The translations under genes were made by a program, and so were the position numbers. Under the pieces are notes generated by a model. That model saw nothing but the letters and a program-made list of their open reading frames with translations, was not told the DNA's origin and did no database searches. This document shows, in pieces, positions 23,942 through 38,001 of a stretch of 64,000 nucleotides of DNA. Positions within the stretch are counted from its first letter, which is position 1. The number at the start of each line of letters is the position of its first letter. Origin of the DNA: Acidimicrobiia bacterium (GTDB lineage: Bacteria; Actinomycetota; Acidimicrobiia; Spongiisociales; Spongiisociaceae); the NCBI GenBank assembly GCA_041576165.1, contig JBFGLM010000014.1, positions 26,577 through 90,576 of the forward strand, written 5' to 3'.

Positions 23942-24541
23942 GTGAGCGACGATGTGATCACTCAAGCGCCGACCGTGACCGAGGCGGTGGCCCGCAATGT
24001 ACGCGAAGCCCGCATCGAGCGGGGGTGGACCCTTGACCAACTGGCCGGCCGCTCTGGGGTCAGCAAGGGCATGGTCGTCCAGATCGAACAAGGAAGGACC
24101 AACCCCAGCATCGGTACGTTGAGCAAGATCTCCGAGGCCCTGGGAGTGTCGCTGCCGGACCTCGTGGACAACGGGGGAGCACCCACGGTGCGTGTTGTCG
24201 AAAGCGACCAGGCGGCGCTGCTGTGGGATACATCCGCCGGAAGCAGCGCGCGGCTGCTGGTCGGCGGGCGCCGGCCCGACTTCATCGAACTGTGGGAGTG
24301 GGTGCTCGTTCCCGGCGAAGAATACGAGGGCACCGTGCACCCGCTCGGGATACGCGAGCTGCTGTATGTAGACAAGGGGGTTTTGAGCTTGGCGGTGGGA
24401 GAACACGAGTACCGGCTGGCCGCGGGCACATCGGCGGCGTACCCCGGCGACCAACCTCACCGCTACCGCAACGACGGACCCGACCGAGTTCGCATATTCC
24501 TGGTCATGGTCGACCCTGGAGGAACCGGGCGCAGCGGGTGA
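23942..24541 (+). CDS. XRE-family HTH + cupin transcriptional regulator (PuuR-like)
   Basis: RIERGWTLDQLAGRSGVSKGMVVQIEQGRTNPSIGTL; cupin ELWEW..HPLGIRE..DQPHRYRN. Confidence 0.92.
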   Translation: MSDDVITQAPTVTEAVARNVREARIERGWTLDQLAGRSGVSKGMVVQIEQGRTNPSIGTLSKISEALGVSLPDLVDNGGAPTVRVVESDQAALLWDTSAGSSARLLVGGRRPDFIELWEWVLVPGEEYEGTVHPLGIRELLYVDKGVLSLAVGEHEYRLAAGTSAAYPGDQPHRYRNDGPDRVRIFLVMVDPGGTGRSG

Positions 24542-24559
24542 TCGGCAGGGTCGGAGCCC

Positions 24560-25738
24560 TCAGCCCGCCAGCTCTTTCTCGACCGGCGTCCGGAACCGGG
24601 GCGTCACCACCGTCCCGTCCAGGATCCCCTCCAGCCGGCTCACTTCTTCGTGTAACAGCGCGTCGTGTGTGGAGGAGAGCGGCTCGAACAATGCGGTGAC
24701 GATCTCACCCGTGGGGCGCTGTCCCCATCCGCCCACCACGCGGCCGTCGGCCCACAAGGTAGGACCGGCATTGCCGTTGCGGTCGAACAGACGGGCCGCG
24801 TGACTCCCGAAATACCAATCGCGCTCCTTCCAGCCCATCGGTGTGGGGTCCAGGCCTGGTAAGAGCGCCACCCACGATTCGGGCGCTGCAGTGCCTCCGA
24901 CGTCGCCGGTCAACACCCAGCCGGTGCCCTCGTCGAGCGCCACTTCGACCGCGCGGTTGGCGACCAGCGCTTCGCGTGTCTGGCGGACCGTCCACCCCGT
25001 CCACCATTTCAGGTCGTTGAATGTGCCGGGCCCGTAGCCGGCCAGCCAACGGCCGGCGAGATCCGTTCGGGCATCCGACGGATCTATGTCGGGCATCGCT
25101 CGACCCAACCACGCCTCCATGGGCGCCCACCGGTACTGGCTACTGAGCCAACTTCCTCGGGGGCGGGCACGGACGATCTTGCCTTCGGTCGCGAGCAGGA
25201 ACAGGACCCGGGTGGAGATACCCATTTCACCGGCCCACATGGCTTCGCCTCCGAACCGCAGTTTCTGTTTGAGTGCCGGCACATCGGTCGACAGTTCACG
25301 CGCCACTGCCTGCCCGCGCTGCGTCAGCGCTGCCAGCGTGCGTTGCTGCACGTCGTCGAGCCAGCCGTCTCCGTTCTGGGCGACATCTTGGTCTTCGAGC
25401 ATCTTGACCAGCTTGGTCCGCTCCCGCTTCGCGAGCGGCGCCGAGCAGCCGTGGTGGAGCAGCGGTGCGAGATCTGTAGGTACGACAAACATCGTCCGGC
25501 GCATTCCGAGCACGCGTACGAGCGTGCGGGCTGTGTAGAGCGAATTGGCGACCGCATCGATCGAAGGCTCTGCCATTCGGGCCCAGGCCGACAGATACAC
25601 GGTTGCCGGATCGCTGGAATGAAGACCGACCTGGGCCTCGGCGACCTCCTCGACTCGCTGTGCGCGGCCAATAGGGGTCAGGTGATGGCGGAGTGCGAGG
25701 CGGTGCCGACGTTCCGCGGTACTGATCGTCGGGGTCAC
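24560..25738 (-). CDS. AlkZ-like (HTH_42) DNA glycosylase, HSSD variant
   Basis: GLHSSDPATVYLSAWAR, LGMRRTMF, GYGPGT..DLKWWTG, LLPGLDPTPMGWKERDWY, FDRNGNAGP, GRVVGGW. Confidence 0.88.
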   Translation of the reverse strand: MTPTISTAERRHRLALRHHLTPIGRAQRVEEVAEAQVGLHSSDPATVYLSAWARMAEPSIDAVANSLYTARTLVRVLGMRRTMFVVPTDLAPLLHHGCSAPLAKRERTKLVKMLEDQDVAQNGDGWLDDVQQRTLAALTQRGQAVARELSTDVPALKQKLRFGGEAMWAGEMGISTRVLFLLATEGKIVRARPRGSWLSSQYRWAPMEAWLGRAMPDIDPSDARTDLAGRWLAGYGPGTFNDLKWWTGWTVRQTREALVANRAVEVALDEGTGWVLTGDVGGTAAPESWVALLPGLDPTPMGWKERDWYFGSHAARLFDRNGNAGPTLWADGRVVGGWGQRPTGEIVTALFEPLSSTHDALLHEEVSRLEGILDGTVVTPRFRTPVEKELAG

Positions 25739-26151
25739 GCCGGATGGTCGACGACGTGGGCCAGCTCATCAAGCTCAGGCATAAGGATGACGCTCTCTTG
25801 TTCATTGGGGTCGGTCCGGGCCACCAGAGCCCGGGCCGGCTCGTTCTTGCTGGCGTTCACGGGCAGATGGGGGACGCCGCCCGGGATGTACACGAAGTCT
25901 CCCGGTCCGACGTCGATTCTCTCCCGGAGCTCTTCGCCGTACCACATTGCAGCACGGCCCTCGAGCACATAGATTGCCGTCTCGTGACCGGCATGGCGGT
26001 GGGCCTTGGCCCTGCCGCCGGGCGGTATCTCGAGCAGATGGGCACACAGACTCTGGGCGCCCACCGACTCGGCCGAAACTCCCATGAACTGGTTGAGGCC
26101 TTGTTTGCTCTCGGTGCCGGTGGATGATCTGACCACCGCAACCCCTGCCAT
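25735..26151 (-). CDS. Cupin domain protein
   Basis: IPPGGRAKAHRHAGHETAIY, GDFVYIPGGVPHLPVN, ARTDPNEQESV. Confidence 0.9.
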   Translation of the reverse strand: MAGVAVVRSSTGTESKQGLNQFMGVSAESVGAQSLCAHLLEIPPGGRAKAHRHAGHETAIYVLEGRAAMWYGEELRERIDVGPGDFVYIPGGVPHLPVNASKNEPARALVARTDPNEQESVILMPELDELAHVVDHPA

Positions 26152-26223
26152 CTTCACCCCTTCTTCGGTCGACGCCGAGGCTACCGGGGAGGGACGCCAC
26201 CCTCACAGTGGGGGAAGCAGTGT

Positions 26224-26901
26224 TCAGTTCGACTTCGAATCGGGGTCGGCGTTCACTTCGGCTGCGAGCCGGTTCCGATCGAGGACCCGGATGCTGCGGT
26301 ACCCCGTTTCGACCAGCCCGGCTTCGGCGAGTTCAGACAGCGACCGGTTGATCGTCTGACGGCGTACTCCCAACATGGCGGCCATCGTGGTCTGGGACAT
26401 CTCGACGTGCCCGGCATCGTCGGCGTGTTCGACGAGCAGGCCTGCAACTTGCTGGCGGGCCGTGCGTCCAAGCAACAGCTCCAGCTGGTCGTGGGATTCG
26501 CCGAGCGCACGCATCGCCGCCGTCAGAAATGCAAGCGACAGCGACGTGCTCGACTCCAGCAGCGGGATCAGTTTGCGGCGGTCGAACCAGTAGATCTCGC
26601 AGTACGTCGCCACGTAGGCGCTCGACTGGTACGGCACGTTGAGGAACATCGAGATGTCGCCGATGAACTTGCCGCTGCCGGGTCGCGTGATGATTCGCTG
26701 GCGACCGTTGTGTCGGGAAACCTCGACGATCCCACGCAAGATCAGATGGCAGTACCGGGATGGCTCTCCCTGGTCGAAGACTTTGTCACCGGGTCGGTAG
26801 ACGATCACGTCCCCGCATTCGGCCAGTGCCTCCAGGTCGGCCCGCGACGGGCGTTTCCCGAGCGTCGCCCGTAAGGTCCGGATCAGGCGTGGGTTGCTCA
26901 T
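26224..26901 (-). CDS. Crp/Fnr family transcriptional regulator
   Basis: cNMP-binding fold (VFDQGEP..ILRGIVEV..GDI) and HTH MSQTTMAAMLGVRRQTINRSL; GGAGG RBS. Confidence 0.88.
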   Translation of the reverse strand: MSNPRLIRTLRATLGKRPSRADLEALAECGDVIVYRPGDKVFDQGEPSRYCHLILRGIVEVSRHNGRQRIITRPGSGKFIGDISMFLNVPYQSSAYVATYCEIYWFDRRKLIPLLESSTSLSLAFLTAAMRALGESHDQLELLLGRTARQQVAGLLVEHADDAGHVEMSQTTMAAMLGVRRQTINRSLSELAEAGLVETGYRSIRVLDRNRLAAEVNADPDSKSN

Positions 26902-27113
26902 CTGTGGTCCTCCCGGCCGAGCGGTGCGGGTGGTCGGCGCCCGGATCATCGCCGCCTGTTCGAGACCGCTCAATCTTGCCGGTTGGTCCGGGGCCGCCCT
27001 TGCTTGTGGACGTGGAGTCACAGGTTAGAAGGATTGATCGTGCGGTTGCTGCAATGCGCCTGTCGGGAAGTCGCAGGCCAGACGGGACGGCAGGTGGTGT
27101 GGGAACGGCGATC

Positions 27114-28007
27114 CTACGGCCTCACCTGCTGGGCGAGGCGCGCGTACGGCGATGCTCCCCGTGTCGACACGCCACTCAGACCCGACTCGAGTTCCCCGCG
27201 GGCGGCGCCGAGGATCGCTTCGACGGCGATCCCTCCGGCTTCCGGATCGTCTGGGTCGACCAGCTCGGAATGGCGGGTGTTGGCGACGTGTAGACCGGGG
27301 TGGTGGCCGGCGTCGACCAGCCGTTCGTAATAGCTCTCGGCGTGGTCGATCGGCACATTGGTGTCGCGCACGCCGTGGATCAGCATCATCGGCACATCGA
27401 CGGACCGACCTGTTTTGCCTTCCGGGGTGAAGTGAGAGGCGTCGACCTCGCCCCACAGCGTTTGGATTCGCCATCCGTAGTGGTAGGCGCCACCCAGGCC
27501 GATGAAAGCTTCCGGGACGTGGGAGATGTGGTCCAGGCAGCTGAAGTCGTAACCGCCGTGCGGGGTCAGCGCTAAACCCGACCCGGGCAGGCCGCCGTAG
27601 GAGAAGCCAACCAGTATCAGGTTGTCCGGATCTGCGCCGTACCGGGAGGCCTGGTTGCGGGCGTAGCGGACCGAACAGACCACATCTTCGAAGGTGTCTC
27701 GAACGGCCTGGCGAGTCCGCGGCTGGCCGCTGTAGTAGGTGGGGACAAAAACGGCTGCACCCCTCGATGCAACGGCTTGGGCCAGACGGTGCATATCGCC
27801 GTTGCCTGTGTTCCCGCCACCGTGCAGCAGAACCACGAGCGGAACGGGTTCGTCGCCGGGTTCGGCTGGAGCGAATAGGTCAATCGTCTGGGTGTTGGGT
27901 CCGGTCAAGTCGTGGATGACCGTGACCTCCTGCGCACCGGAGGCGGCCGGTACCGACAGCAATCCGAAGGCAATTATGGATGCGATGGTGCGGGCTGTAT
28001 GTGACAT
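27114..28007 (-). CDS. Secreted alpha/beta hydrolase (esterase-like)
   Basis: Signal peptide, LLHGGG, GFSYGG nucleophile elbow, IHGVRD.NVP, H near C-terminus. Confidence 0.88.
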   Translation of the reverse strand: MSHTARTIASIIAFGLLSVPAASGAQEVTVIHDLTGPNTQTIDLFAPAEPGDEPVPLVVLLHGGGNTGNGDMHRLAQAVASRGAAVFVPTYYSGQPRTRQAVRDTFEDVVCSVRYARNQASRYGADPDNLILVGFSYGGLPGSGLALTPHGGYDFSCLDHISHVPEAFIGLGGAYHYGWRIQTLWGEVDASHFTPEGKTGRSVDVPMMLIHGVRDTNVPIDHAESYYERLVDAGHHPGLHVANTRHSELVDPDDPEAGGIAVEAILGAARGELESGLSGVSTRGASPYARLAQQVRP

Positions 28008-28073: not shown

Positions 28074-28093
28074 GAAAGGTGCGAGAAAGGTGC
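28074..28093. promoter_or_regulatory. 9-bp direct repeat with 11-bp period, candidate SARP binding site
   Basis: GAAAGGTGC-ga-GAAAGGTGC between the hydrolase and the SARP gene. Confidence 0.6.
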
Positions 28094-28164
28094 TCGGGGT
28101 GGGATTGTCGGGACCGGCAACGCCGGTGTCGGCGTAGCCTTGATCGAGGATGGAGGGGCCGGCC

Positions 28165-31100
28165 ATGCAATTCCAGATCCTGGGTCCGTTGGAGATGACC
28201 AGCAGTGGTCAGCCGGTCGATCTGGGTGCCAGGAAACAGCGCATGCTGCTGGCGCTGCTTCTGATCAACGCCAATCGGGTCGTGTCCACCGACCGGATTT
28301 TGGAAAGCCTGTGGGGGGACGACGCCGAGGGCAAGGAAAACGCCCTTTGGGTTTACGTCTCTCGCCTTCGCGGCGTCCTAGAACCCGAGCGGGGCAAGGG
28401 CGAGCAGGGGGAGGTACTCGTTACCCGCGACCACGGATATCAGCTCAACGTCGATCCGGACGCGATCGACGCAGCACGGTTTGAGCGGGCCGCCGCCGAG
28501 GGGCGATCTCTGGTCAGGGACGATCCCGAACGTGCGGCCGGCCTCTTGGCGACCGCGCTCGAGGAGTGGTCGGGTATTCCGTTGCAGGAGTTCGCATACG
28601 AGGAATTCGCCCAGTCCGAGTTGGCACGCCTCGAAGAGTTACGGGTCACGGCGCTGGAGGATCGGATTGAAGCCGACCTTCGCCGCGGCGCCGCCCGGGA
28701 TGTGATCGCCGATCTGGAAGCTCTTCACGACCAGTACCCGCTCCGCGAGCGGCCGGTCGGCCAACTCATGCTGGCTTTGTACCGTTCCGGACGTCAGGCC
28801 GACGCGCTGAGGACCTTCACCCGCTACGAACGGCACTTGGCGGAGGAGCTCGGCGTTGAGGCGTCGCCGGAACTCCGGCGGCTCGAGGAGCAGATCTTGC
28901 TCCACGATTCCCGCATCCAAGCCAGTCGGCCGACCCGGGTTGCAGCCGCACACGTCGCCAGGGCAGTGAACCCCTACAAGGGCTTGCGGGCCTTTGGAGA
29001 GGATGACGCATCAGACTTCTACGGTCGCGAGCGTCTGATCGCCGACTTGATGCGCCGGATGGGTGAGGGCCAGCAGATGCTCGCTCTGGTCGGGGCGAGC
29101 GGGTCGGGCAAGTCGAGTGTTGTGAAGGCCGGCTTGATTCCCGCGATCCGCAAGTCCGACGACCCTGGCCGGCAGAGTTGGATAGTGGCGCAGATGGTGC
29201 CCGGATCCCATCCTTTTACCGAACTCGAGGTGGCGTTGCTCCGGTCCACGCTTGATGGACCGGAGTCGCTGGCCGAGCAGATCCGGGTGCCGGACACGGG
29301 GATTCTGGGCGCATGTTTGCGGGTTTTGCCGGACCCGGACAGCCGTCTGTTGCTGGTGATAGACCAGTTCGAGGAGCTGTTCACCCTGGCCGAGGACGAG
29401 GCCGTCAGACGGGACTTCCTGGCAGGGCTGGTGACCGCAGTGGATGACCCACACGGACGGATCACCGTGGTGCTGACGCTGCGGGCCGATTTTTATCACC
29501 GGCCGTTGACCAATCCGGACTTTGGTGACCGGCTGGGCGAGGCCGTGGTCAACGTGGTTCCGCTGCGACCGGACGAACTGGAGACCGCCGCCCTCAAGCC
29601 CGCGCAACACATGGGGATGGAGCTCGAGCCGGCGCTGCTCGGGGCGCTGATCGGCGACGTGGCCGGTCAGCCGGGGGCGCTGCCGCTGTACCAATATGCC
29701 CTCACCGAACTCTTCGATCGCCGCGTGGGGAACACCCTCACGCTGGACGCGTACCGGGCCTCAGGTGGAGTGGCGGGTGCGCTGTCGACCCGGGCCGAAG
29801 ATCTGTATGCGCGGCTGACCGTGAGCCAGCGGACCGCAGCGAAGCAGCTGTTCCTGCGACTGGTGACGATCGCGGAGACGGATGAGTGGTCGCGGCGGCG
29901 GGTGCCGGCCCGGGAGATCCTGGCGCTCGACCTGGACGTGCTGGCTCTGCAGGCGGCAATCGATCTCTATGCCGGCCACCGACTGCTGACGTTGGATCGG
30001 GATTCGACGACCGGGTCGCCGACGGTCGAGGTCGGCCACGAAGCATTGCTCAACGAGTGGGAGCGTTTGCGCGACTGGATCGACGCTGCCCGTGACGACG
30101 TCCGGCGTCATGCTGCATTGACGACGTCGATGTTCGAGTGGTGGGAATCGGCCCGGGATCCCGGCTTCCTGCTGACCGGGTCGCGGTTGGAAGCGTATGA
30201 GCAATGGGCGGGCCAGGCGACCATGCAGCTGACGAAAGGTGAGCGGGAGTTCCTGGCGGCCTCGGTGGAGGCTCGGGACACGGCGGTGGAATTCGAGCTC
30301 GAACGCCAGCAGCTGGAGCTGCGGGCGGTCCGCTCGGCCAGGCGGAGGTTGTGGGGGCTTGGCGCACTGATCATTGCGGTTGCGGGTCTTGCGGTGGTGG
30401 TGCTCGCACTGGCGCCATGGTCAACGAAGCCGGTGGTGACCGCCATGCTCCGGTCTGTGGATGGAGGAGGCCAGGACGCGCAGAATATGTTCGTTCGGGG
30501 CCTTGAGTCAGCTGAGCGTGACTTCGGTATCGAACTCGCTGTCGAGACCGGGCCGTTCGTGGACCTTCCGGCGGAGTACGACGTTGCGGTTCGAGATACG
30601 GACCTGTTCATTGGCAGCCTCGACACAATGCGAAGCTGGTGGCCAGGCTGGACGGACGCAGAAGCGCAAAGGTTACTGGCCCAGGACTCGCCTGGTACGA
30701 GTCGCGCGTATCTGGGGTTCCAGACTCTCGTCCCTGATGCGGCCTCGGTCAGGTTGAGCGCGCACGAGGGTGCATATTTGGCCGGCGCAGCTGCGGCGCT
30801 GAACTCTCAGTCAAATGTGATCGCATTCATCGGCCCGGTCCAGGTCGAAGACATCGAGTCATTTCGGGCGGGCTATGAGCAAGGTGCCCGCCACGCTCGG
30901 CCCGGCGTCCGTGTTTTGTCGCAGTACGTGACGACCACTGATTCCGAAGACGCAGCGTTCATGCCGCTATCGCCCGATCGCTGGCCGACAACAGCCCAAG
31001 CGGCCAGAACAGCCGACTTCTTGATCGCGGAAGGCGCCGACGTTGTTTTCTGGGTCGGCGGGGTGGACGGGGGCATGGGCGTGCTCGAAGCGGTTGCGCG

Positions 31101-32085
31101 GGCAAACGAGGACGCGCACCGGGTCTGGTTCATTGGGACGGATGTCAATTGGGGACTCGAGCGAGTGAATGGCCAACGGGCTATATCCCATGTACTCACA
31201 TCGGTTGTGACCCGTTGGGACGCAGTCGCCTACAACCTGGTCGACGCATACACATCCGGAGAGCTGTCGCCGGGCCCGGTCGAGTACGGAGTCGCCGCGG
31301 GAGTGATCGAACTGACGGCTACCGGGGGCCACCTGGCAGATGTGCGGGCCACGCTGGCCGAAATCGGATCGCGTATTGCCACGGGAGCCACACAGGTAGA
31401 CCGCGTTCCGGACTCCGTCGTCTCGGCTCCGGTCGATGCTGGCGTCGTTAGCGATGCACGGGTGCGCTTTGACGGGACGGTCTGTGAGTACGAAGGCCCG
31501 CTCGAGGTTGTCGCCGGTAACACCCTGCGGTTGACGTACGAGAACGATGCAAGTGTGCCTAGCTCCCTTCGATTGCGAGTGTCGGCACTGCAGTCGATCC
31601 CGGCCGAGTCCGGTCGCCGGAACGTGGGATACCTGCGCGTGAACGGAAGCAACCGGAGCATCAGCTGTACGACCGCGGCACGAATGGTCCCAGGACCCAG
31701 CCTCGAGCTTGTGAACCACCCGGCGACTGCGATTGATCACGTCGTCCAAGTGGTCTACGACGGCAGCCAATGCACGCTTCTCGATGGACAAGAGGTCCGC
31801 GTTGGATCCCTGGTCGAGTTCGACGTTGCCAATCGATCGTCGAAATTCGCTTCATTCCCGGTGTGGCATGCCGCCGACGGTTCGAGCGACCTCCTGAGCG
31901 AACCGGGTGGCCGGTTTATCGGGGACACCTTCCTCGCTCACATGGATCGTTATTACACCGAAGGGTTGGCTTCGCGGGGCACGTCCGTTCGTTTTGTCGC
32001 CCGGATCGACACGGCGGGCGAGCATTTCGTGACGTGTTTCAGTGGCGACGAGCCGGGTAACGCCGCATTTGTCGCGACCGATTGA
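28165..32085 (+). CDS. Transmembrane regulator: SARP (wHTH+BTAD) - nSTAND1 NTPase - TM - BMP/PnrA-like ligand-binding domain - two beta-sandwich repeats
   Basis: MQFQILGPLE, LMLALYRSGRQADAL, NPYKGLRAF..FYGRE, GASGSGKSS, IDQFEELFT, HEALLNEWERL, TM LWGLGALIIAVAGLAVVVLALA, EGAYLAGAAAA..FRAGYEQGA..FIGTDVN. Confidence 0.88.
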   Translation: MQFQILGPLEMTSSGQPVDLGARKQRMLLALLLINANRVVSTDRILESLWGDDAEGKENALWVYVSRLRGVLEPERGKGEQGEVLVTRDHGYQLNVDPDAIDAARFERAAAEGRSLVRDDPERAAGLLATALEEWSGIPLQEFAYEEFAQSELARLEELRVTALEDRIEADLRRGAARDVIADLEALHDQYPLRERPVGQLMLALYRSGRQADALRTFTRYERHLAEELGVEASPELRRLEEQILLHDSRIQASRPTRVAAAHVARAVNPYKGLRAFGEDDASDFYGRERLIADLMRRMGEGQQMLALVGASGSGKSSVVKAGLIPAIRKSDDPGRQSWIVAQMVPGSHPFTELEVALLRSTLDGPESLAEQIRVPDTGILGACLRVLPDPDSRLLLVIDQFEELFTLAEDEAVRRDFLAGLVTAVDDPHGRITVVLTLRADFYHRPLTNPDFGDRLGEAVVNVVPLRPDELETAALKPAQHMGMELEPALLGALIGDVAGQPGALPLYQYALTELFDRRVGNTLTLDAYRASGGVAGALSTRAEDLYARLTVSQRTAAKQLFLRLVTIAETDEWSRRRVPAREILALDLDVLALQAAIDLYAGHRLLTLDRDSTTGSPTVEVGHEALLNEWERLRDWIDAARDDVRRHAALTTSMFEWWESARDPGFLLTGSRLEAYEQWAGQATMQLTKGEREFLAASVEARDTAVEFELERQQLELRAVRSARRRLWGLGALIIAVAGLAVVVLALAPWSTKPVVTAMLRSVDGGGQDAQNMFVRGLESAERDFGIELAVETGPFVDLPAEYDVAVRDTDLFIGSLDTMRSWWPGWTDAEAQRLLAQDSPGTSRAYLGFQTLVPDAASVRLSAHEGAYLAGAAAALNSQSNVIAFIGPVQVEDIESFRAGYEQGARHARPGVRVLSQYVTTTDSEDAAFMPLSPDRWPTTAQAARTADFLIAEGADVVFWVGGVDGGMGVLEAVARANEDAHRVWFIGTDVNWGLERVNGQRAISHVLTSVVTRWDAVAYNLVDAYTSGELSPGPVEYGVAAGVIELTATGGHLADVRATLAEIGSRIATGATQVDRVPDSVVSAPVDAGVVSDARVRFDGTVCEYEGPLEVVAGNTLRLTYENDASVPSSLRLRVSALQSIPAESGRRNVGYLRVNGSNRSISCTTAARMVPGPSLELVNHPATAIDHVVQVVYDGSQCTLLDGQEVRVGSLVEFDVANRSSKFASFPVWHAADGSSDLLSEPGGRFIGDTFLAHMDRYYTEGLASRGTSVRFVARIDTAGEHFVTCFSGDEPGNAAFVATD

Positions 32086-32368: not shown

Positions 32369-33871
32369 TCAGCGATATAGCTCAACCGCGAACGGATTGA
32401 GTCCACCCGGTCCGCCCGGTGGGTTGGAGCCGCGCAGGCTTTGAGGGAGCGCCGAATCGGGCAGTACGAATGCCGACATCTGTTTCATGGCGTGCGCGCC
32501 GCTACACGGCGCGGGCACGCACGGTTCACCCGGGCTGTGGAAGACCCAATCGGCGCCCTTCCACGCCGTCGTCTGCAAGTAGATCGCCCGGAACCGCCGG
32601 ATGTGCAGCCAGCTGCTCCCGGTACCCAGGGTCGATTCCCAGAATTCGGGGATATATGCGAACCGGGCTGTGTTGCTTCCCAGGCTCTGGTTGAAGATCA
32701 CCGCCGAGTAAGAGCCCGCCACGTACTCGTCTATGCAGACCTCCATGTGCTGCCAGGAGCGGTTTTGGTCGGGATTTCCGTCCAGGTCCCAGTCCTGCTG
32801 CCCCCCGTTGAACGTCGAGGGTGCGCAGCTGGCGGGGGCATCGTCGGCGGCCGTGGCGGTCGAGGTTCCTCCGTAGTCCGCAGCTGGCGAGATGTAGTGC
32901 CAGAGCGGACGGTCGTCCACAGCGCGGCCGAAGACGGTGGTGGTGGTGGCGCTCTGCGCCAGCCGGGGCGTGTAGCCGCCGGGAACCGGGCCAACCAAGC
33001 CCTGCTCAGCGCCGTTGCCCGGGAAACCGGTGTCGGTGTTGAGCGTGTCGACCAGCGGGTTGTAGCAGAGATCACGAACCTCGTTGGCCACCAGCCCGTC
33101 CGTATCGGGGATGATGATGTGGTCGTAGCCGTGAGCGATGTTTTGGGCGAGCACCTGGGGTGGCGGTGATGCCGAGCACTCCGGGCTGGTCGGTATCAGT
33201 GGGTTTCCGAACTTCCTGCCCTTGAGACTGCCGAAGTTCCCGGACACCGACCCGGTGCACGGGTCCTGGGCGAGCCCGGACGGGCTGGATGACAGACACA
33301 GATGACCTGAGCCGGCGCCACTGGAGATCCCGAACGGCAGGATGCCGCCTGTCCCATTGATCGGACGCAACCGTGACACGGCAAACGCGCCGGTCGCGAG
33401 TTCGTCCACGCCGAACAAGCGTCCGAAGGTCGTATCGATCAGTTGCGTCGGCAGTCGAACCCGCAACAGGCCGCGCGCCGATTCGAAGGACAGGCACCAG
33501 TTGGCGGGATCGGTCGGAACCCAGGTCGCCGGAGCGGGGAGCGCAACGAAATTGAAGCCTCCGTCGTTGCGCTCGGACGCCTGGTCGACGCAGGACTCCC
33601 ACAGGGACTGCCACTCGGCCGGGGTGTAAGTGGTCGGGAGGTTGTCCTCGACGTACGCAAGTGCTTCATCCCGCATCGCCGTTCCGCCGTTGAGTGCCGC
33701 GACCACGCCGGCCATTGCGCTCATGTCGGCTGCGGTCTGATCGGCCCTCCGCTCGTTGAACCCGGCACCGAGGTCGATCGCCAGGGCCGCGAAGCCGAGC
33801 AACAGCAGCATTGCGGCCGCCACGATGAGGGCCGACGCGCCCCGCTCCTCCCCGAGGCCCCGGGTCAGCAT
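32369..33871 (-). CDS. TadG-like Flp pilus assembly/adhesin protein
   Basis: EERGASALIVAAAMLLLLGFAALAIDLG..RADQTAAD prepilin-like N-terminus; Cys-rich body. Confidence 0.85.
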   Translation of the reverse strand: MLTRGLGEERGASALIVAAAMLLLLGFAALAIDLGAGFNERRADQTAADMSAMAGVVAALNGGTAMRDEALAYVEDNLPTTYTPAEWQSLWESCVDQASERNDGGFNFVALPAPATWVPTDPANWCLSFESARGLLRVRLPTQLIDTTFGRLFGVDELATGAFAVSRLRPINGTGGILPFGISSGAGSGHLCLSSSPSGLAQDPCTGSVSGNFGSLKGRKFGNPLIPTSPECSASPPPQVLAQNIAHGYDHIIIPDTDGLVANEVRDLCYNPLVDTLNTDTGFPGNGAEQGLVGPVPGGYTPRLAQSATTTTVFGRAVDDRPLWHYISPAADYGGTSTATAADDAPASCAPSTFNGGQQDWDLDGNPDQNRSWQHMEVCIDEYVAGSYSAVIFNQSLGSNTARFAYIPEFWESTLGTGSSWLHIRRFRAIYLQTTAWKGADWVFHSPGEPCVPAPCSGAHAMKQMSAFVLPDSALPQSLRGSNPPGGPGGLNPFAVELYR

Positions 33872-34290
33872 GTGTGGTTTCCCGTCGCCCACAGAGTGGT
33901 GGGCTGTTCGATGCTCACGTTGACGGTTGAGCCGAGAGTGGCCGGCATCATCGACGTGACACCGGGGAAGCCGGTGAGCGGAGTCACGTTCACGACAACA
34001 GACACCGTGGCCCGACTGCCAACAGCACCGGGGTCTGTGAAGGAAACAACCGCTCCGGTGGTGGAGTCCATGGCGCCGCAGACGGCCGCTCCCATGCTTG
34101 CCACCGAACCCGAATTGGAGGCAGCGAGCCTGGCTGCTTCGCGGGCCCCGTGACGCACGTCGTTTTGCTGGCTCATGAGCCAGCCGAATTCGGCGATTCC
34201 TACCAGCAAAAGAACCAATAGCGGCATGAGCAGTGCGAATTCGACGAGCGCAGCTCCTCTATCGGGCGAGTCCGGGTTGTCCATCGACAT
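33865..34290 (-). CDS. TadE-like pseudopilin
   Basis: DRGAALVEFALLMPLLVLLLVGIAEFG..AREAARLAA. Confidence 0.9.
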   Translation of the reverse strand: MSMDNPDSPDRGAALVEFALLMPLLVLLLVGIAEFGWLMSQQNDVRHGAREAARLAASNSGSVASMGAAVCGAMDSTTGAVVSFTDPGAVGSRATVSVVVNVTPLTGFPGVTSMMPATLGSTVNVSIEQPTTLWATGNHTC

Positions 34291-34612
34291 GCCTGTCCGA
34301 GTGGGGTATTGCGTTCAAGCCCGGAACGCCGACAGACTAAGCCGACGCTTGCCGTACAGGGTCAAGACGCGCGCAAATATCAAAAATGAGTCGTTTGAAT
34401 CACTGGGAGCAGTTGCCAGCTGGGTTGAAGTGGTCGACGCCAAACGGCCGACGGTGGCGGCGACCAGGACGCAATGCGTCGGTCGAGACTCGAACGAGCC
34501 AAACTCGGGATAGTTGATCCGCAACGTCCATAAGCAGCCCCGGGACGGCGGGCGACCCGGGCTTGCCCCGGCTCTGCTCGCCGGACCTCTCGGCGAACTC
34601 GCTCCAAGTTCA

Positions 34613-34630
34613 ATCGAACATATGTTCGAT
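34613..34630. promoter_or_regulatory. LexA (SOS) box upstream of dnaE2
   Basis: ATCGAACATATGTTCGAT, identical to the box at 13895. Confidence 0.92.
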
Positions 34631-34641
34631 AATTGGATACG

Positions 34642-37600
34642 ATGTCTGACGTGGCGCAGAAGAGAGCAAAGTACGCGGAGTTGCACGCCCATTCGAACTT
34701 CTCGTTTCTCGATGGGGCATCGCATCCGGAGCGGATCGTTGAGCAGGCAGTGCAACTCGGGCTCGAAGCCCTGGCCGTCACCGATCACGACGGCTTCTAC
34801 GGGCTCGTCAGGTTTTGGAGCGCGGCCCGCGAGGCCGGACTCCCGGCCGTGTACGGCGCCGAGATTTCGCTCCCGCCGGGCGGGCCCGACGCCGAACGGG
34901 AGGGCCGTGACCTCCCGATCCGCGCGGCGCAGACCAAAGACGCCACCCGGCCGATCACCAGCGCCGGCGAGTCAGATCGCTGGCGGCGGGGGCGCATCCG
35001 CCGTATGCACGGCACCAAACCCGTCGACCAGGGCTTGGTCGACCACCTGGTACTGCTGGCGCCTTCCCCCGACGGCTACGCCGAACTGTCGAAACTGATC
35101 AGCCGGGCCCAGTTCCGGGGCGAGAAGGACCGACCGATCTACCGCTGGGAGGATCTGGCCGAAGCCGCTACCAAAGGCCGGCTGGTGGCCCTCAGCGGCT
35201 GCTGGCAGGGCGCCATCCCCCGCGCCGCCCAGACCGGCGATGTGGCCGCTACCACCCGGGCCGCCACCCAGCTCAAGGACATCTTCGGCACCCGCCTCCA
35301 CCTCGAGCTGTGGGACCATCTCATGCCCGAGGACGGACCGCGTAATGACCTGATGTGGGAGGTGGCGCGGCAGCTCAAGCTGCCGGTGGTGGCAACCAAC
35401 AACGTCCACTACGCCGACCGTCACGACGCCGACCTGTCCGAAGTCCTCGCCGCCATCGGTGGGCGCCGCACGCTGGTGGAGCAGGATGGGTTCCGCCCGG
35501 CCACCGACGAGCGCTACCTGAAGTCACCCGAGGAGATGGCGGCCCGTTTCGCCCGCTACCCGGGAGCAGTCGAGCGATCGGTTCATCTCGCTCGAGCTCT
35601 GACGTTCGATCTGAAGCTGGTCGCTCCCAAACTGCCGGATTTTCCGATGCCGGGTCACTTCCAGGACGAGATGGAGTACCTGCGCCATCTCACCTTCGAA
35701 GGCGCCCTCGACGTGTATCCCGACTCGGCCGGTGGGATCGATCCCCGTGCCCGGGACCGGCTCGAGCACGAACTGCAGATCATCGAGAACCTCGGGTTCC
35801 CCGGCTATTTCCTGGTGGTGTGGGACATCGTCAACTTCGCCCGGGACCAAGACATCTTGTGCCAGATCCGTGGGTCGGGCGCCGACTCGGCGGTGTGCCG
35901 CTGTCTGGGACTCACCCGGGTCGACCCGATCCGGCTGATGTTGCCGTTCGAGCGGTTCTTGTCAGAAGAACGCGGGCGGCCGCCCGACATCGATCTCGAT
36001 CTCGAAGCCGAACGGCGCGAGGAGGTCATCCAGTACTGCTACCGCCGCTATGGGCGGGAGCGGGCCGCCATGGTGGCGAATGTGATCACCTACCGGGCCC
36101 GTTCGGTGCTGCGCGACGTCGGCAAAGCCTTCGGATTCACTCAGGCCCAGGTCGACGGCCTCTCCAAGTACGTCGACAGCCGCAACACTTCCCAGCTCCG
36201 CCTCGAGGCGCCCCTGCCGGAAGGGATGACTGCCGACTTCGTATACGACGTCTGTCACCGGATCGATGGGTTCCCCCGCCATCTGGGGATTCATTCCGGC
36301 GGGATGGTGATCGCCGACCGGCCGCTGTGGCAGGTGGTCCCGATCGAGTGGGGCCGGATGGAGGATCGCACCGTGCTGCAGTGGGACAAGGACGACTGCG
36401 CCGCGATCGGGATCGTCAAGTTCGACCTGCTCGGCCTCGGCATGCTCAACGCCCTCCACCTCACGGTCGACGCCATCGAGGATGCCCACGGGGTCAAGAT
36501 CGATCTGGCGACGATCCCCCAGGAGTCGGCCGTCTACGAGATGATGACCAAGGCCGACACGGTGGGCCTGTTCCAGGTCGAGTCGCGGGCGCAGATGGCA
36601 ACCCTTCCCCGGATGAAACCGAAGACCTTCTACGACCTGGCGGTCGAGGTCGCCCTCATCCGGCCCGGTCCGATCCAGGGGGCGTCCGTCCATCCCTACC
36701 TGCGCCGGCGCAATGGCGAGGAGCCGGTTCGCTACCCCCACCCGCTCACCGAGCCAATCCTCAAAAAGACCCTCGGGGTGCCCGTCTTCCAGGAACAACT
36801 CATGGAGCTGGCCCGACTGTGCGCCGGGTTCGACGGCGGCCAGTCCGACCGGCTGCGGGCCGCGATGACCCACAAACGCTCCGACGAAGCGATGGCCCGG
36901 CTGCGGGATGAGGTGTTCGCCGGGATGGCCTCCAACGGGGTGACCGGCGCCGCCGCCGAGGAGATCTGGGAGAAGCTGCAGGGATTCGCCAGCTTCGGCT
37001 TTCCGGAGAGCCACTCGGTCAGCTTCGCCTACATCGTGTACATGTCGGCCTGGTTGCGGTACCACTGGCCCGCCGAGTTTCTGGCGGGCCTGTTGAACGC
37101 CCAGCCGATGGGCTTCTACAGCCCCAATTCGCTGGTGCAGGATGCGATCCGCCACGGGGTGGTGGTGCTCGACCCCGACATCAACCTGTCCCGGTACGAC
37201 TGCACGATCGAACATCACGACGCCGATCCCGGCGACATCGCCACCTACTACGGCATGCGGTGGCGGCGGGGGAGAGGCGCCATCGACGACCCGATCCGCA
37301 CGGCGGTGGCGGTGCGGCTTGGGTTCCGATATGTGCGCAACCTGGGCGACGCCGAGGTCACCCGCATCGAGGTGGCTCGCCAGATCGGCGGGCCGTTTCG
37401 GGATCCGATCGACCTATCCCATCGGGCCGGGCTGCCGGTTGATGCGCTGGAGGGCCTGGCCGCATCAGGCGCGCTGGAGTCATTGGGTCTCGACCGTCGA
37501 GAGGGGCTGTGGGCGGCGGGCGCGCTGGCAGAGATCGGTCCCGGCCGGCTGCCGCTGGCGCCCGGGGCCGATGCACCGCCGCTGCCGGGGATGGATGAGC

Positions 37601-38001
37601 GCGCGGTCCACCAGGCTGCTCTGTGGTCGACCGGGGTGTCGGTCCGCCATCCGATCGAGTTCGCCCGAGAGCGGCTGGCCGCCCAGGGCTGCGTCACCGT
37701 GGCCGAGGCGCTGGCCGTGCTCCGCAACGGAGTCAAGGCCAAGGTGGGCGGCATTGTCACCCACCGTCAGCGGCCGGGGACCGCAGCCGGGGTGATCTTC
37801 TTCAACCTGGAGGACGAGACCGGACTGTTGAACGTCGTCGTGCTGCCCGACATCTGGTCGGCCAACAAGGAGATCGCCCGCCGCAGCGTGGGGCTGATCA
37901 TCGACGGGTTGCTGGAATACCGCGACGGTGTCACCAACCTGGTGGCCCGCTCGTTTGAACCGATCGAGACCGACGAGGTGGCCACCCGTAACTTCCGATG
38001 A
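34642..38001 (+). CDS. dnaE2: Error-prone DNA polymerase DnaE2 (ImuC)
   Basis: YAELHAHSNFSFLDGASHP, PPDIDLD, QWDKDDC, QVESRAQM, FPESHS, NAQPMGFY, RQRPGTA, C-terminal TRNFR. Confidence 0.97.
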   Translation: MSDVAQKRAKYAELHAHSNFSFLDGASHPERIVEQAVQLGLEALAVTDHDGFYGLVRFWSAAREAGLPAVYGAEISLPPGGPDAEREGRDLPIRAAQTKDATRPITSAGESDRWRRGRIRRMHGTKPVDQGLVDHLVLLAPSPDGYAELSKLISRAQFRGEKDRPIYRWEDLAEAATKGRLVALSGCWQGAIPRAAQTGDVAATTRAATQLKDIFGTRLHLELWDHLMPEDGPRNDLMWEVARQLKLPVVATNNVHYADRHDADLSEVLAAIGGRRTLVEQDGFRPATDERYLKSPEEMAARFARYPGAVERSVHLARALTFDLKLVAPKLPDFPMPGHFQDEMEYLRHLTFEGALDVYPDSAGGIDPRARDRLEHELQIIENLGFPGYFLVVWDIVNFARDQDILCQIRGSGADSAVCRCLGLTRVDPIRLMLPFERFLSEERGRPPDIDLDLEAERREEVIQYCYRRYGRERAAMVANVITYRARSVLRDVGKAFGFTQAQVDGLSKYVDSRNTSQLRLEAPLPEGMTADFVYDVCHRIDGFPRHLGIHSGGMVIADRPLWQVVPIEWGRMEDRTVLQWDKDDCAAIGIVKFDLLGLGMLNALHLTVDAIEDAHGVKIDLATIPQESAVYEMMTKADTVGLFQVESRAQMATLPRMKPKTFYDLAVEVALIRPGPIQGASVHPYLRRRNGEEPVRYPHPLTEPILKKTLGVPVFQEQLMELARLCAGFDGGQSDRLRAAMTHKRSDEAMARLRDEVFAGMASNGVTGAAAEEIWEKLQGFASFGFPESHSVSFAYIVYMSAWLRYHWPAEFLAGLLNAQPMGFYSPNSLVQDAIRHGVVVLDPDINLSRYDCTIEHHDADPGDIATYYGMRWRRGRGAIDDPIRTAVAVRLGFRYVRNLGDAEVTRIEVARQIGGPFRDPIDLSHRAGLPVDALEGLAASGALESLGLDRREGLWAAGALAEIGPGRLPLAPGADAPPLPGMDERAVHQAALWSTGVSVRHPIEFARERLAAQGCVTVAEALAVLRNGVKAKVGGIVTHRQRPGTAAGVIFFNLEDETGLLNVVVLPDIWSANKEIARRSVGLIIDGLLEYRDGVTNLVARSFEPIETDEVATRNFR

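Follow-up and report, generated by a model that had tools for sequence, protein, structure and literature searches.

The prevailing view is that STAND- and NLR-type switches sense within the cytoplasm and that large SARPs are soluble proteins regulating antibiotic genes. ToxR- and CadC-type regulators follow another plan: they are membrane-bound one-component proteins in which a winged helix-turn-helix (wHTH) inside the cell is joined through a transmembrane (TM) helix to a sensor outside. Here we analyze a gene of an Acidimicrobiia bacterium that can be set beside both groups. It lies on the + strand at 28165-32085 of a 64,000-nt stretch of DNA (assembly GCA_041576165.1, contig JBFGLM010000014.1, positions 26,577 to 90,576), the whole of which is called the window below, and its product combines a SARP module, an nSTAND1 nucleoside triphosphatase (NTPase), one TM helix, and a Bmp-type sensor. 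We describe the parts of this protein and their order, the fold of the sensor, the predicted topology, and a tandem repeat upstream of the gene. On balance, and with some reserve, we favor reading the protein as an ATP-gated SARP activator anchored in the membrane, with a switch controlled from outside the cell and with feedback on the promoter of its own gene.

In AfsR (PMC10936776), the SARP domain is reported to form a side-by-side dimer on its box, where it overlaps the -35 element; the NOD and TPR domains are reported to be inhibitory, with ATP relieving the inhibition. A preprint (bioRxiv 10.64898/2026.09.02.748808) recognizes just two types of large SARP, NB-ARC-TPR and SARP-LAL. Like AfsR and the other large SARPs of Streptomyces (SARP, NB-ARC, and TPR), the protein studied here begins with a wHTH and a BTAD domain, followed by a STAND-class NTPase that would gate activation. 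Binding to tandem repeats is a further likeness, although AfsR binds them as a side-by-side dimer and the present gene has candidate repeats only. The differences are that the NTPase is nSTAND1 and not NB-ARC, that TPR is absent, and that the place of the cytoplasmic repeats is taken by a TM helix plus a sensor outside the cell. Identity as an AfsR-like large SARP was rejected: neither NB-ARC nor TPR had a Pfam match in the protein, and the NCBIfam AfsR equivalog model stayed below threshold (168 bits versus a cut-off of 1430).

Like the ToxR/CadC-type regulators, the protein is predicted to place its N-terminal OmpR-type wHTH in the cytoplasm and its sensor outside, with one TM helix between them. 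It departs from them in that a BTAD domain and an NTPase of ~400 aa stand between the DNA-binding domain and the membrane and in that its sensor has a Bmp fold; Pfam matched no sensor family of ToxR or CadC in the protein. The nucleoside-binding proteins PnrA, BmpD, BmpA, and Lbp, which serve ATP-binding cassette (ABC) importers, share the fold of this sensor (Z 27-29) and resemble it in sequence (E 1e-11). Unlike them, the sensor is not a lipoprotein, is not encoded beside ABC transporter genes, and is fused to a regulator. A role as the lipoprotein partner of an ABC importer was rejected, since the Bmp domain is internal to a 1306-aa regulator, after the TM helix, and no ABC transporter genes were found among the eight neighboring open reading frames (ORFs) scanned. 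The NCBIfam model for Bmp-type B6-binding proteins was likewise below threshold (65 bits versus 400). Judged by its sequence, the protein would not function as one of the nucleoside-binding Bmp transport proteins.

A Bmp fold tied to transcription is also found in Med of Bacillus halodurans (PDB 2hqb; Z 26.0, root-mean-square deviation 3.2 over 278 residues; rank 19 in the Foldseek list). The PDB entry is titled as a transcriptional activator of comK, and by this title Med is linked to comK. Med differs in being a separate lipoprotein without a DNA-binding part. Full-text literature searches (covering titles and the starts of abstracts, with subscription journals and supplements outside their scope) found no paper describing the architecture of the present protein. 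It is visible in database annotations, as an earlier note on this DNA had said of related architectures. What is new here is the reading of a transmembrane STAND design across the family, the altered pocket of this protein, and the candidate autoregulatory box.

Domain order and predicted topology

A stop-free ORF extends from 28150 to 32085 on the + strand and translates to 1311 aa from an ATG at 28150 or to 1306 aa from the ATG at 28165. The latter is the likelier start, because a GGAGG ribosome-binding site, read from the sequence, lies 8 nt before it (28152-28156, + strand) and because the database copy of the protein (P0002) is 1306 aa long. The gene boundaries of 28165 and 32085 in the earlier note are thus correct. 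Residue numbers throughout are counted from ATG 28150, and all features of the gene lie on the + strand.

The N terminus consists of a Trans_reg_C domain, which is an OmpR-type wHTH (28210-28446, aa 21-99; Pfam, 1.3e-14), and then a BTAD domain (28465-28899, aa 106-250; Pfam, 3.1e-42), the combination by which SARPs are defined. This part matches the solved structures of EmbR (2fez, E 7e-37) and AfsR (8k60, E 1.3e-32, aa 2-318), and these solved relatives span aa 2-318 only. The nSTAND1 NTPase follows at 28972-30162 (aa 275-671; Pfam, 8.7e-110) and matches PF20703 with 368 bits (cut-off 27.1) over profile positions 1-378 of 379. Its Walker A motif GASGSGKSS (29092-29118, from aa 315, with K321 as the Lys) and its Walker B-type motif LVIDQFEE (the IDQFEE part at 29359-29376, from aa 404) are intact, and both motifs are present in the family consensus. 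The juxtamembrane linker (30163-30348, aa 672-733) ends in an Arg run, SARRR, and is kept in the family consensus. It leads into a single TM helix, assigned by hydrophobicity (30349-30417, aa 734-756). Beyond the helix come a Bmp/PnrA-type two-lobe periplasmic-binding fold with an altered pocket (30427-31416, aa 760-1089; T1021 and N1000) and two copies of a C-terminal β-domain, repeat 1 at 31444-31713 (aa 1099-1188; Cys 1112 and Cys 1173) and repeat 2 at 31732-32082 (aa 1195-1311; Cys 1208 and Cys 1296). Pfam, motifs, models, and a hidden Markov model (HMM) therefore return the same parse that the earlier note had given: wHTH, BTAD, intact nSTAND1, TM helix, Bmp, and two related repeats.

The protein is predicted to be a type-II single-pass membrane protein with its N terminus inside and its sensor half outside. 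Residues 734-756 are the sole strong hydrophobic segment (Kyte-Doolittle 2.88), in agreement with the single TM helix that had been placed at ~30349-30415. The C-terminal half, about 552-555 residues, is predicted to be outside because the wHTH and the NTPase, which bind DNA and ATP, must be cytoplasmic. The positive-inside rule agrees with this orientation, which had also been proposed before, as there are six Lys or Arg in the 20 residues before the helix versus two in the 20 after it. The distribution of Cys is in line with an outside location of the ectodomain: one Cys occurs in the 733 cytoplasmic residues and four in the ectodomain, all within the C-terminal repeats, which would be β-domains of the disulfide type.

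The TM helix is found at the same place after nSTAND1 in 116 of 119 relatives. In the genome itself, all eight frames that continue past the NTPase, including the one studied here, have it ~50 residues past the NTPase and after an Arg-rich run. In the paralogues of this genome the helix precedes WD40 repeats, and the propellers are therefore predicted to be outside as well. The general statement that STAND proteins sense their ligands in the cytoplasm, on which the earlier note had relied as background, accordingly fails for the SARP-nSTAND1 family.

The same topology might serve regulated proteolysis, in which an event outside would cause the protein to be cut at the TM helix or close to it, and a soluble SARP-nSTAND1 part would be released to activate transcription. 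Membrane-tethered regulators exist in general, soluble large SARPs such as AfsR act in the cytoplasm, and DNA binding by a protein held in the membrane is sterically demanding. ToxR/CadC-type regulators, however, bind DNA while in the membrane; moreover, no protease gene was linked at the loci examined and the sequence bears no cleavage-site mark. We regard proteolytic release as quite improbable and prefer an activator that works while anchored in the membrane.

Fold and ancestry of the outside half

The Pfam Bmp family (PF02608) matches aa 864-1056 (4.5e-20; 72 bits versus a cut-off of 24.1). Two AlphaFold2 models of the ectodomain reached predicted local distance difference test (pLDDT) values of 76.6 and 79.4 and predicted template modeling (pTM) scores of 0.80 and 0.79. 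In these models the first ~330 residues form a two-lobe α/β fold, mostly at pLDDT >90. The top Foldseek matches were BmpD, Lbp, PnrA, AtzT, RfuA, and Med (E 2.5e-21 to 7e-16). A structure search independent of Foldseek gave Z scores of 22.6-28.7 for Bmp-family chains (28.7 for 7x0r, 28.3 for 2fqw, and 28.1 for 6shu) and no more than 18.6 for generic sugar-binding proteins and LacI-type cores. These modeling results agree with one another and confirm the expectation that the C-terminal half would model as a periplasmic-binding fold, here a venus-flytrap domain of the Bmp kind.

The last ~215 residues had no meaningful Pfam match, even at E values up to 10, and a PDB sequence search with them was empty. 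They contain the two related repeats that had been recognized by eye, each with one copy of a shared motif (VRFDGTVC at aa 1105 and VVYDGSQC at aa 1201). The repeats are 25% identical (pairwise E 0.003), and both match the HMM of a single ~100-aa domain that we built from the first matches (E 1.2e-17 for repeat 1 and 1.4e-16 for repeat 2). The domain was detected in 136 of 270 collected proteins, as a single copy in 122 and as a double copy in 14. In an alignment of 121 sequences, Cys 1112 is invariant and Cys 1173 is present in at least 90% of the rows. A deeper alignment yielded a β-sandwich model of repeat 1, in which pLDDT was 80-97 for most 10-residue blocks; repeat 2 had pLDDT <50 in both AlphaFold2 models. 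A cupredoxin-like lead for the repeats from the ESM Atlas (0.86) fell below the 0.9 line, and by eye their consensus is without a His/Met pattern. Fold searches with the whole model are dominated by the Bmp domain.

The G+C content at third codon positions (GC3) falls from 0.80 before the TM helix to 0.70 after it, which bears out the weaker bias noticed earlier by eye. Across this genome, mean GC3 is 0.781 (standard deviation 0.051) for genes of 300 aa or more, 6% of which are at or below 0.70, and a within-gene drop of at least 0.10 occurs in 0.7% of the 134 genes of at least 800 aa; one WD40 paralogue has a comparable drop (0.093). The GC3 change had been taken as a sign of a swapped-in sensor module, a claim that stands only in part. 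PF02608 is present in 112 of the 120 best N-half matches (57-67% identical, with the window's own entry counted). Those relatives that carry a name are Acidimicrobiia or Actinobacteria metagenome bins, and they are annotated as BTAD-domain regulators or as 'Med / SARP'. The nSTAND1 paralogues of the same genome are 42-50% identical to the protein in the NTPase. In a quick maximum-likelihood tree of 65 NTPase domains, six of these paralogues form one clade (Shimodaira-Hasegawa-like approximate likelihood ratio test [SH-aLRT] 96), whereas the NTPase studied here falls in a 28-row clade (SH-aLRT 98) that is Bmp-type apart from a few members. The tree sampled one in three of the Bmp-type rows, and its 'noBmp' label is a local criterion, with some of the proteins so labeled carrying PF02608. 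Because so many N-half relatives carry Bmp, and because the NTPase groups with theirs and not with the paralogues of its own genome, these sequence comparisons indicate that the Bmp architecture is old in this NTPase lineage and is not a local swap. Its conservation indicates that it is under selection.

What holds of the swap proposal is that the ectodomain is both divergent and GC3-poor. It is 28-35% identical to the ectodomains of the three nearest N-half relatives, whereas other pairs with 65-70% N-half identity have a mean ectodomain identity of 50% (5th-95th percentile 34-68%; 134 proteins). Among 1.84 billion representatives, the best ectodomain matches were just 33-42% identical, and no donor could be named from them. 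Since the ectodomain is an outlier in identity and is also poor in GC3, fast divergence is possible, as is a replacement within the lineage by a distant Bmp domain.

A shift of GC3 at the TM helix could also arise from an assembly or gene-calling artefact, given that the genome is metagenome-derived (5.1 Mb in 161 contigs, 96.5% complete, 7.5% contamination). Against this, the reading frame is continuous, the same domain order recurs in those 112 best relatives, which come from many sources, and complete-looking loci are found elsewhere. We give an artefact practically no weight and treat the gene as a genuine fusion.

Candidate box and proposed signaling

A gap of 157 nt separates the gene from a divergent α/β-hydrolase gene. 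Within it, 72-91 nt upstream of ATG 28165, is a candidate SARP box in which the 9-nt word GAAAGGTGC occurs twice on the + strand (28074-28093; copies at 28074-28082 and 28085-28093, 11 nt start to start). The candidate site thus has the appearance of a SARP site, namely, tandem direct repeats one helical turn apart near a promoter. The tandem GAAAGGTGC is the sole exact copy in the 5.1-Mb genome, where the next best site has 3 mismatches.

Upstream regions (-150 to -10) were compared for 19 of 21 homologue loci, leaving out L028, which matches from residue 244, and L053, a paralogue of the same genome with a TAG. Exact 7-mer direct repeats were found at spacing 11 in four of the 19 loci and in 0-1 loci at each other spacing from 7 to 20 (shuffles: mean 0.20, maximum 2 in 200). 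The pattern AAG[GT]-N7-AAG[GT] occurred at spacing 11 in six of the 19 loci (the gene's own and five others) but at none of the other 14 spacings from 6 to 20 in any of the 19 (shuffles: mean 0.06, maximum 1 in 500); it had been set after viewing the own locus and L026, so that the independent cases are four of the other 17 loci. At L026 the two halves of the repeat read TAAGGTCGA / AAAGGTCGA. All six belong to the seven loci that match the protein best; in the remaining one, L039, the word is a variant that does not fit the pattern. Homologues at a greater distance have other words at the 11-nt spacing: TAGAGC (L041 and L045), CATGTG (L052), and GAGGTAG (L049). These words hint at a box that co-varies with the protein clade. 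Because the box travels with the regulator gene while the neighboring genes differ, the comparison is suggestive of SARP-type autoregulation through this putative box.

By analogy with AfsR and with ToxR/CadC-type regulators, signaling may proceed as follows. A change in the ectodomain (ligand binding, ligand loss, or clustering) would be relayed via the TM helix and the juxtamembrane segment, and the relay would free the NTPase from an inhibited state. ATP binding and self-association would then place two SARP modules side by side, and the pair, seated on the two GAAAGGTGC repeats, would recruit RNA polymerase in the manner of AfsR. The outcome would be positive autoregulation and, probably, control of unlinked targets as well. 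The earlier note had proposed an NLR-like transmembrane one-component receptor with a swapped-in sensor that couples a nucleoside-like signal to transcription. We retain its N-in topology, its outside sensor, and the receptor-like reading, but neither the nucleoside signal nor the local swap.

A number of observations weigh against this account. For the box, apart from the choice of the AAGK pattern after the fact, the pattern is absent in 13 of the 19 loci, and the genomes compared are related and are not independent samples. A scan for sigma-70-like promoters gave 0 sites. Elsewhere in this incomplete genome, the search for the box turned up no other good copy: there was no excess of sites with up to 4 mismatches, nor of AAGGT-N6-AAGGT (4 versus 2-4 at other spacings). 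No conserved neighborhood was apparent across the window and three other loci. For the protein, a sequence search found no solved nSTAND1 structure, and a signal would have to reach the STAND module through one helix. The members of the family are known from sequence. According to PMC8195603, nSTAND1 was first named in conflict systems. The sensor pocket belongs with these points.

A BmpA study (PMC13325309) gives the conserved pocket as Phe27, Phe151, Phe176, Val224, Asp225, and Lys242, with Asp98, Asp225, and Lys242 contacting the ribose. We mapped these positions at the level of sequence, by aligning the protein with HMMER to BmpD, Lbp, and PnrA and by means of a Bmp-domain alignment of 249 rows. 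F905, F937, and D998, the equivalents of Phe151, Phe176, and Asp225, are retained. The ribose-binding Lys242 is replaced by Thr1021 (other Bmp domains have Lys in 206 of 248 and Arg in 23), Asn1000 occupies a near-invariant Asp position (Asp in 235 of the 248), the column equivalent to Asp98 (a family Asp after the third strand, 172 of 248) is a gap, and the aromatic residue equivalent to Phe27 is lost. The combination Asp-Asn-Thr was found in none of the 248 other Bmp domains, and all seven of the nearest N-half relatives checked have Asp-Asp-Lys. By this alignment, the protein lacks the nucleoside pocket as defined for BmpA (two stacking Phe with Asp, Asp, and Lys at the ribose), whereas the family consensus retains the published pocket residues. 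The nucleoside-like signal of the earlier proposal is therefore plausible for the family but probably does not hold for this member: the Bmp-regulator family as a whole may well respond to nucleoside-like ligands, while the ligand of the present protein is probably not a canonical nucleoside. Because two near-invariant pocket positions are altered, the sensor may bind nothing, or something unexpected.

If it binds no small ligand, the ectodomain would be a tether or a contact surface for an envelope partner (an ABC-transporter permease or a cell-wall component), and the NTPase would answer a cytoplasmic cue or that partner. Such a role would suit the unique Lys-to-Thr and Asp-to-Asn changes and the gap at the conserved Asp column, together with an ectodomain that is the most diverged of its clade and GC3-poor, as relaxed constraint would make it; in addition, the genome encodes three ordinary Bmp binding proteins. 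It is harder to square with the two-lobe fold, which is modeled with high confidence, with the retention of Asp998, F905, and F937 in the pocket, and with a frame that is open throughout the ectodomain. The ligands of Bmp relatives also vary, as in the riboflavin (4iil) and AtzT (6pi5) structures, and changed residues may point to a different ligand and not to its loss. We consider a sensor without a small ligand unlikely and continue to favor a switch set by a signal from outside.

The name of the NTPase raises a further alternative, in which the protein would take part in conflict or immunity and deliver its output through the SARP module. The use of nSTAND1 in the context of systems that counter invaders is again seen in a second source (bioRxiv 10.1101/2023.09.22.558884). 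Expansion of the family within the genome and its patchy distribution would be in keeping with such a role: 14 of 41 near genomes (a tally that includes one unpublished genome, G028) match at E <=1e-30, but only 2 of 24 in the same family do, and across the class, at E <=1e-150, matches occur in 16 of 401 genomes. However, no known anti-phage STAND system was recovered with the 5027 PADLOC models (0 matched), no effector domain is present, and no defence genes are nearby. The SARP module is an activator of transcription for which the gene's own promoter carries a candidate box, and an outside sensor would be ill-suited to phage proteins inside the cell. A conflict role is thus very improbable, and a regulator of transcription remains the preferred reading.

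Paralogues, neighboring genes, and wider meaning

Twelve places in the genome exceed the Pfam cut-off for nSTAND1. Besides the gene described here, seven long paralogues were parsed by Pfam, of which six are complete N-terminally and the seventh is ended by a contig edge. The six complete paralogues have the order wHTH-BTAD-protein kinase-nSTAND1-TM-WD40, with a cyclase before the kinase in one of them and a terminal OpuAC domain in another. Five (L013, L015-L017, and L019, at C22:70402-75294, C37:20802-26438, C20:20013-25841, C46:26886-32444, and C105:2831-8035) are 1630-1942 aa long, and the C20 paralogue carries an adenylate/guanylate cyclase between BTAD and the Ser/Thr kinase. L018 (C29:31217-37426, 2068 aa) has WD40 repeats and then a C-terminal OpuAC glycine-betaine-type binding domain (E 6.7e-37), so that the same inside part carries a solute-binding sensor of another kind. 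The earlier note had suggested a survey of paralogues that share the N-half but differ in the ectodomain. Such WD40 and OpuAC variants were indeed found, but they belong to the separate NTPase clade of the genome's own paralogues.

Other members of the set depart from this pattern. L020 (C22:75313-78527) and the gene at C22:70402-75294 form an nSTAND1-TM-WD40 pair, arranged head to tail on the same strand and 18 nt apart, the upstream member of which is ended by the contig edge. A SARP-nSTAND1 paralogue at C15:85304-87439 has an in-frame TAG within the NTPase and may be a pseudogene or reflect a sequencing error. L022 (C2:96418-101769, 1783 aa) has a reversed layout, with an N-terminal hydrophobic segment, DUF11 and SdrD_B surface-type repeats, a second hydrophobic segment at ~aa 1290, and a distant C-terminal nSTAND1 (E 2.3e-28).

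Among the best 150 ectodomain matches, 62 carry nSTAND1 and 10 carry a SARP module without a detected NTPase. Five of the latter, proteins of ~600 aa (P0041, P0078, P0112, P0124, and P0147), combine wHTH(-BTAD) with Bmp; Pfam found nSTAND1 in none of the five, BTAD was present in four, and a TM helix was detected in three at the threshold used. The Bmp domain is therefore coupled to a DNA-binding module even where the NTPase switch is missing. The three with a detected helix share the three-part plan of the ToxR/CadC-type regulators and would be minimal, ToxR-like versions of the receptor. The top-scoring matches, P0004 (1047 aa) and P0005 (689 aa), have three and two tandem Bmp domains, respectively, with a terminal hydrophobic segment and no regulator part.

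The genes upstream, at 23942-28007 of the window, encode an HTH_3-cupin regulator, an AlkZ-like DNA glycosylase, a cupin, a Crp-type cNMP-binding regulator, and the divergent α/β-hydrolase (BD-FAE/S9). None of them recurs beside three orthologues, save for unrelated α/β-hydrolases. Downstream, at 32369-34290 on the - strand and convergent with the gene, are a 507-aa ORF with a sub-threshold TadE/G-like N terminus (E 6e-4; 20.5 bits versus a cut-off of 22.3) and a 141-aa TadE-like ORF (E 1.2e-15), both of the pilus-assembly pseudopilin type. A DNA polymerase III alpha-type gene of 1122 aa, with PHP, core, finger, HHH, and OB domains, follows at 34633-38001 on the + strand. The region upstream of it (33900-34800) has the lowest GC content of the stretch examined (0.59-0.62).

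Beyond the single gene, we tentatively propose, with rather less than even confidence, a class of transmembrane NLR-like receptors in Actinomycetota. In such receptors a membrane-adjacent STAND NTPase would read an outside Bmp, WD40, or OpuAC sensor via one helix and drive transcription via the fused SARP, with kinase and cyclase modules added in paralogues. The family has hundreds of members in uncultured Acidimicrobiia. If the proposal is true, STAND proteins would be surface receptors as well as cytoplasmic sensors. The family would then offer natural sensor swaps (Bmp, WD40, and OpuAC) on one signaling chassis, with a candidate site at the promoter of the present gene, and, with sensor, switch, and output in one protein, a simple and self-contained system for STAND gating across a membrane.

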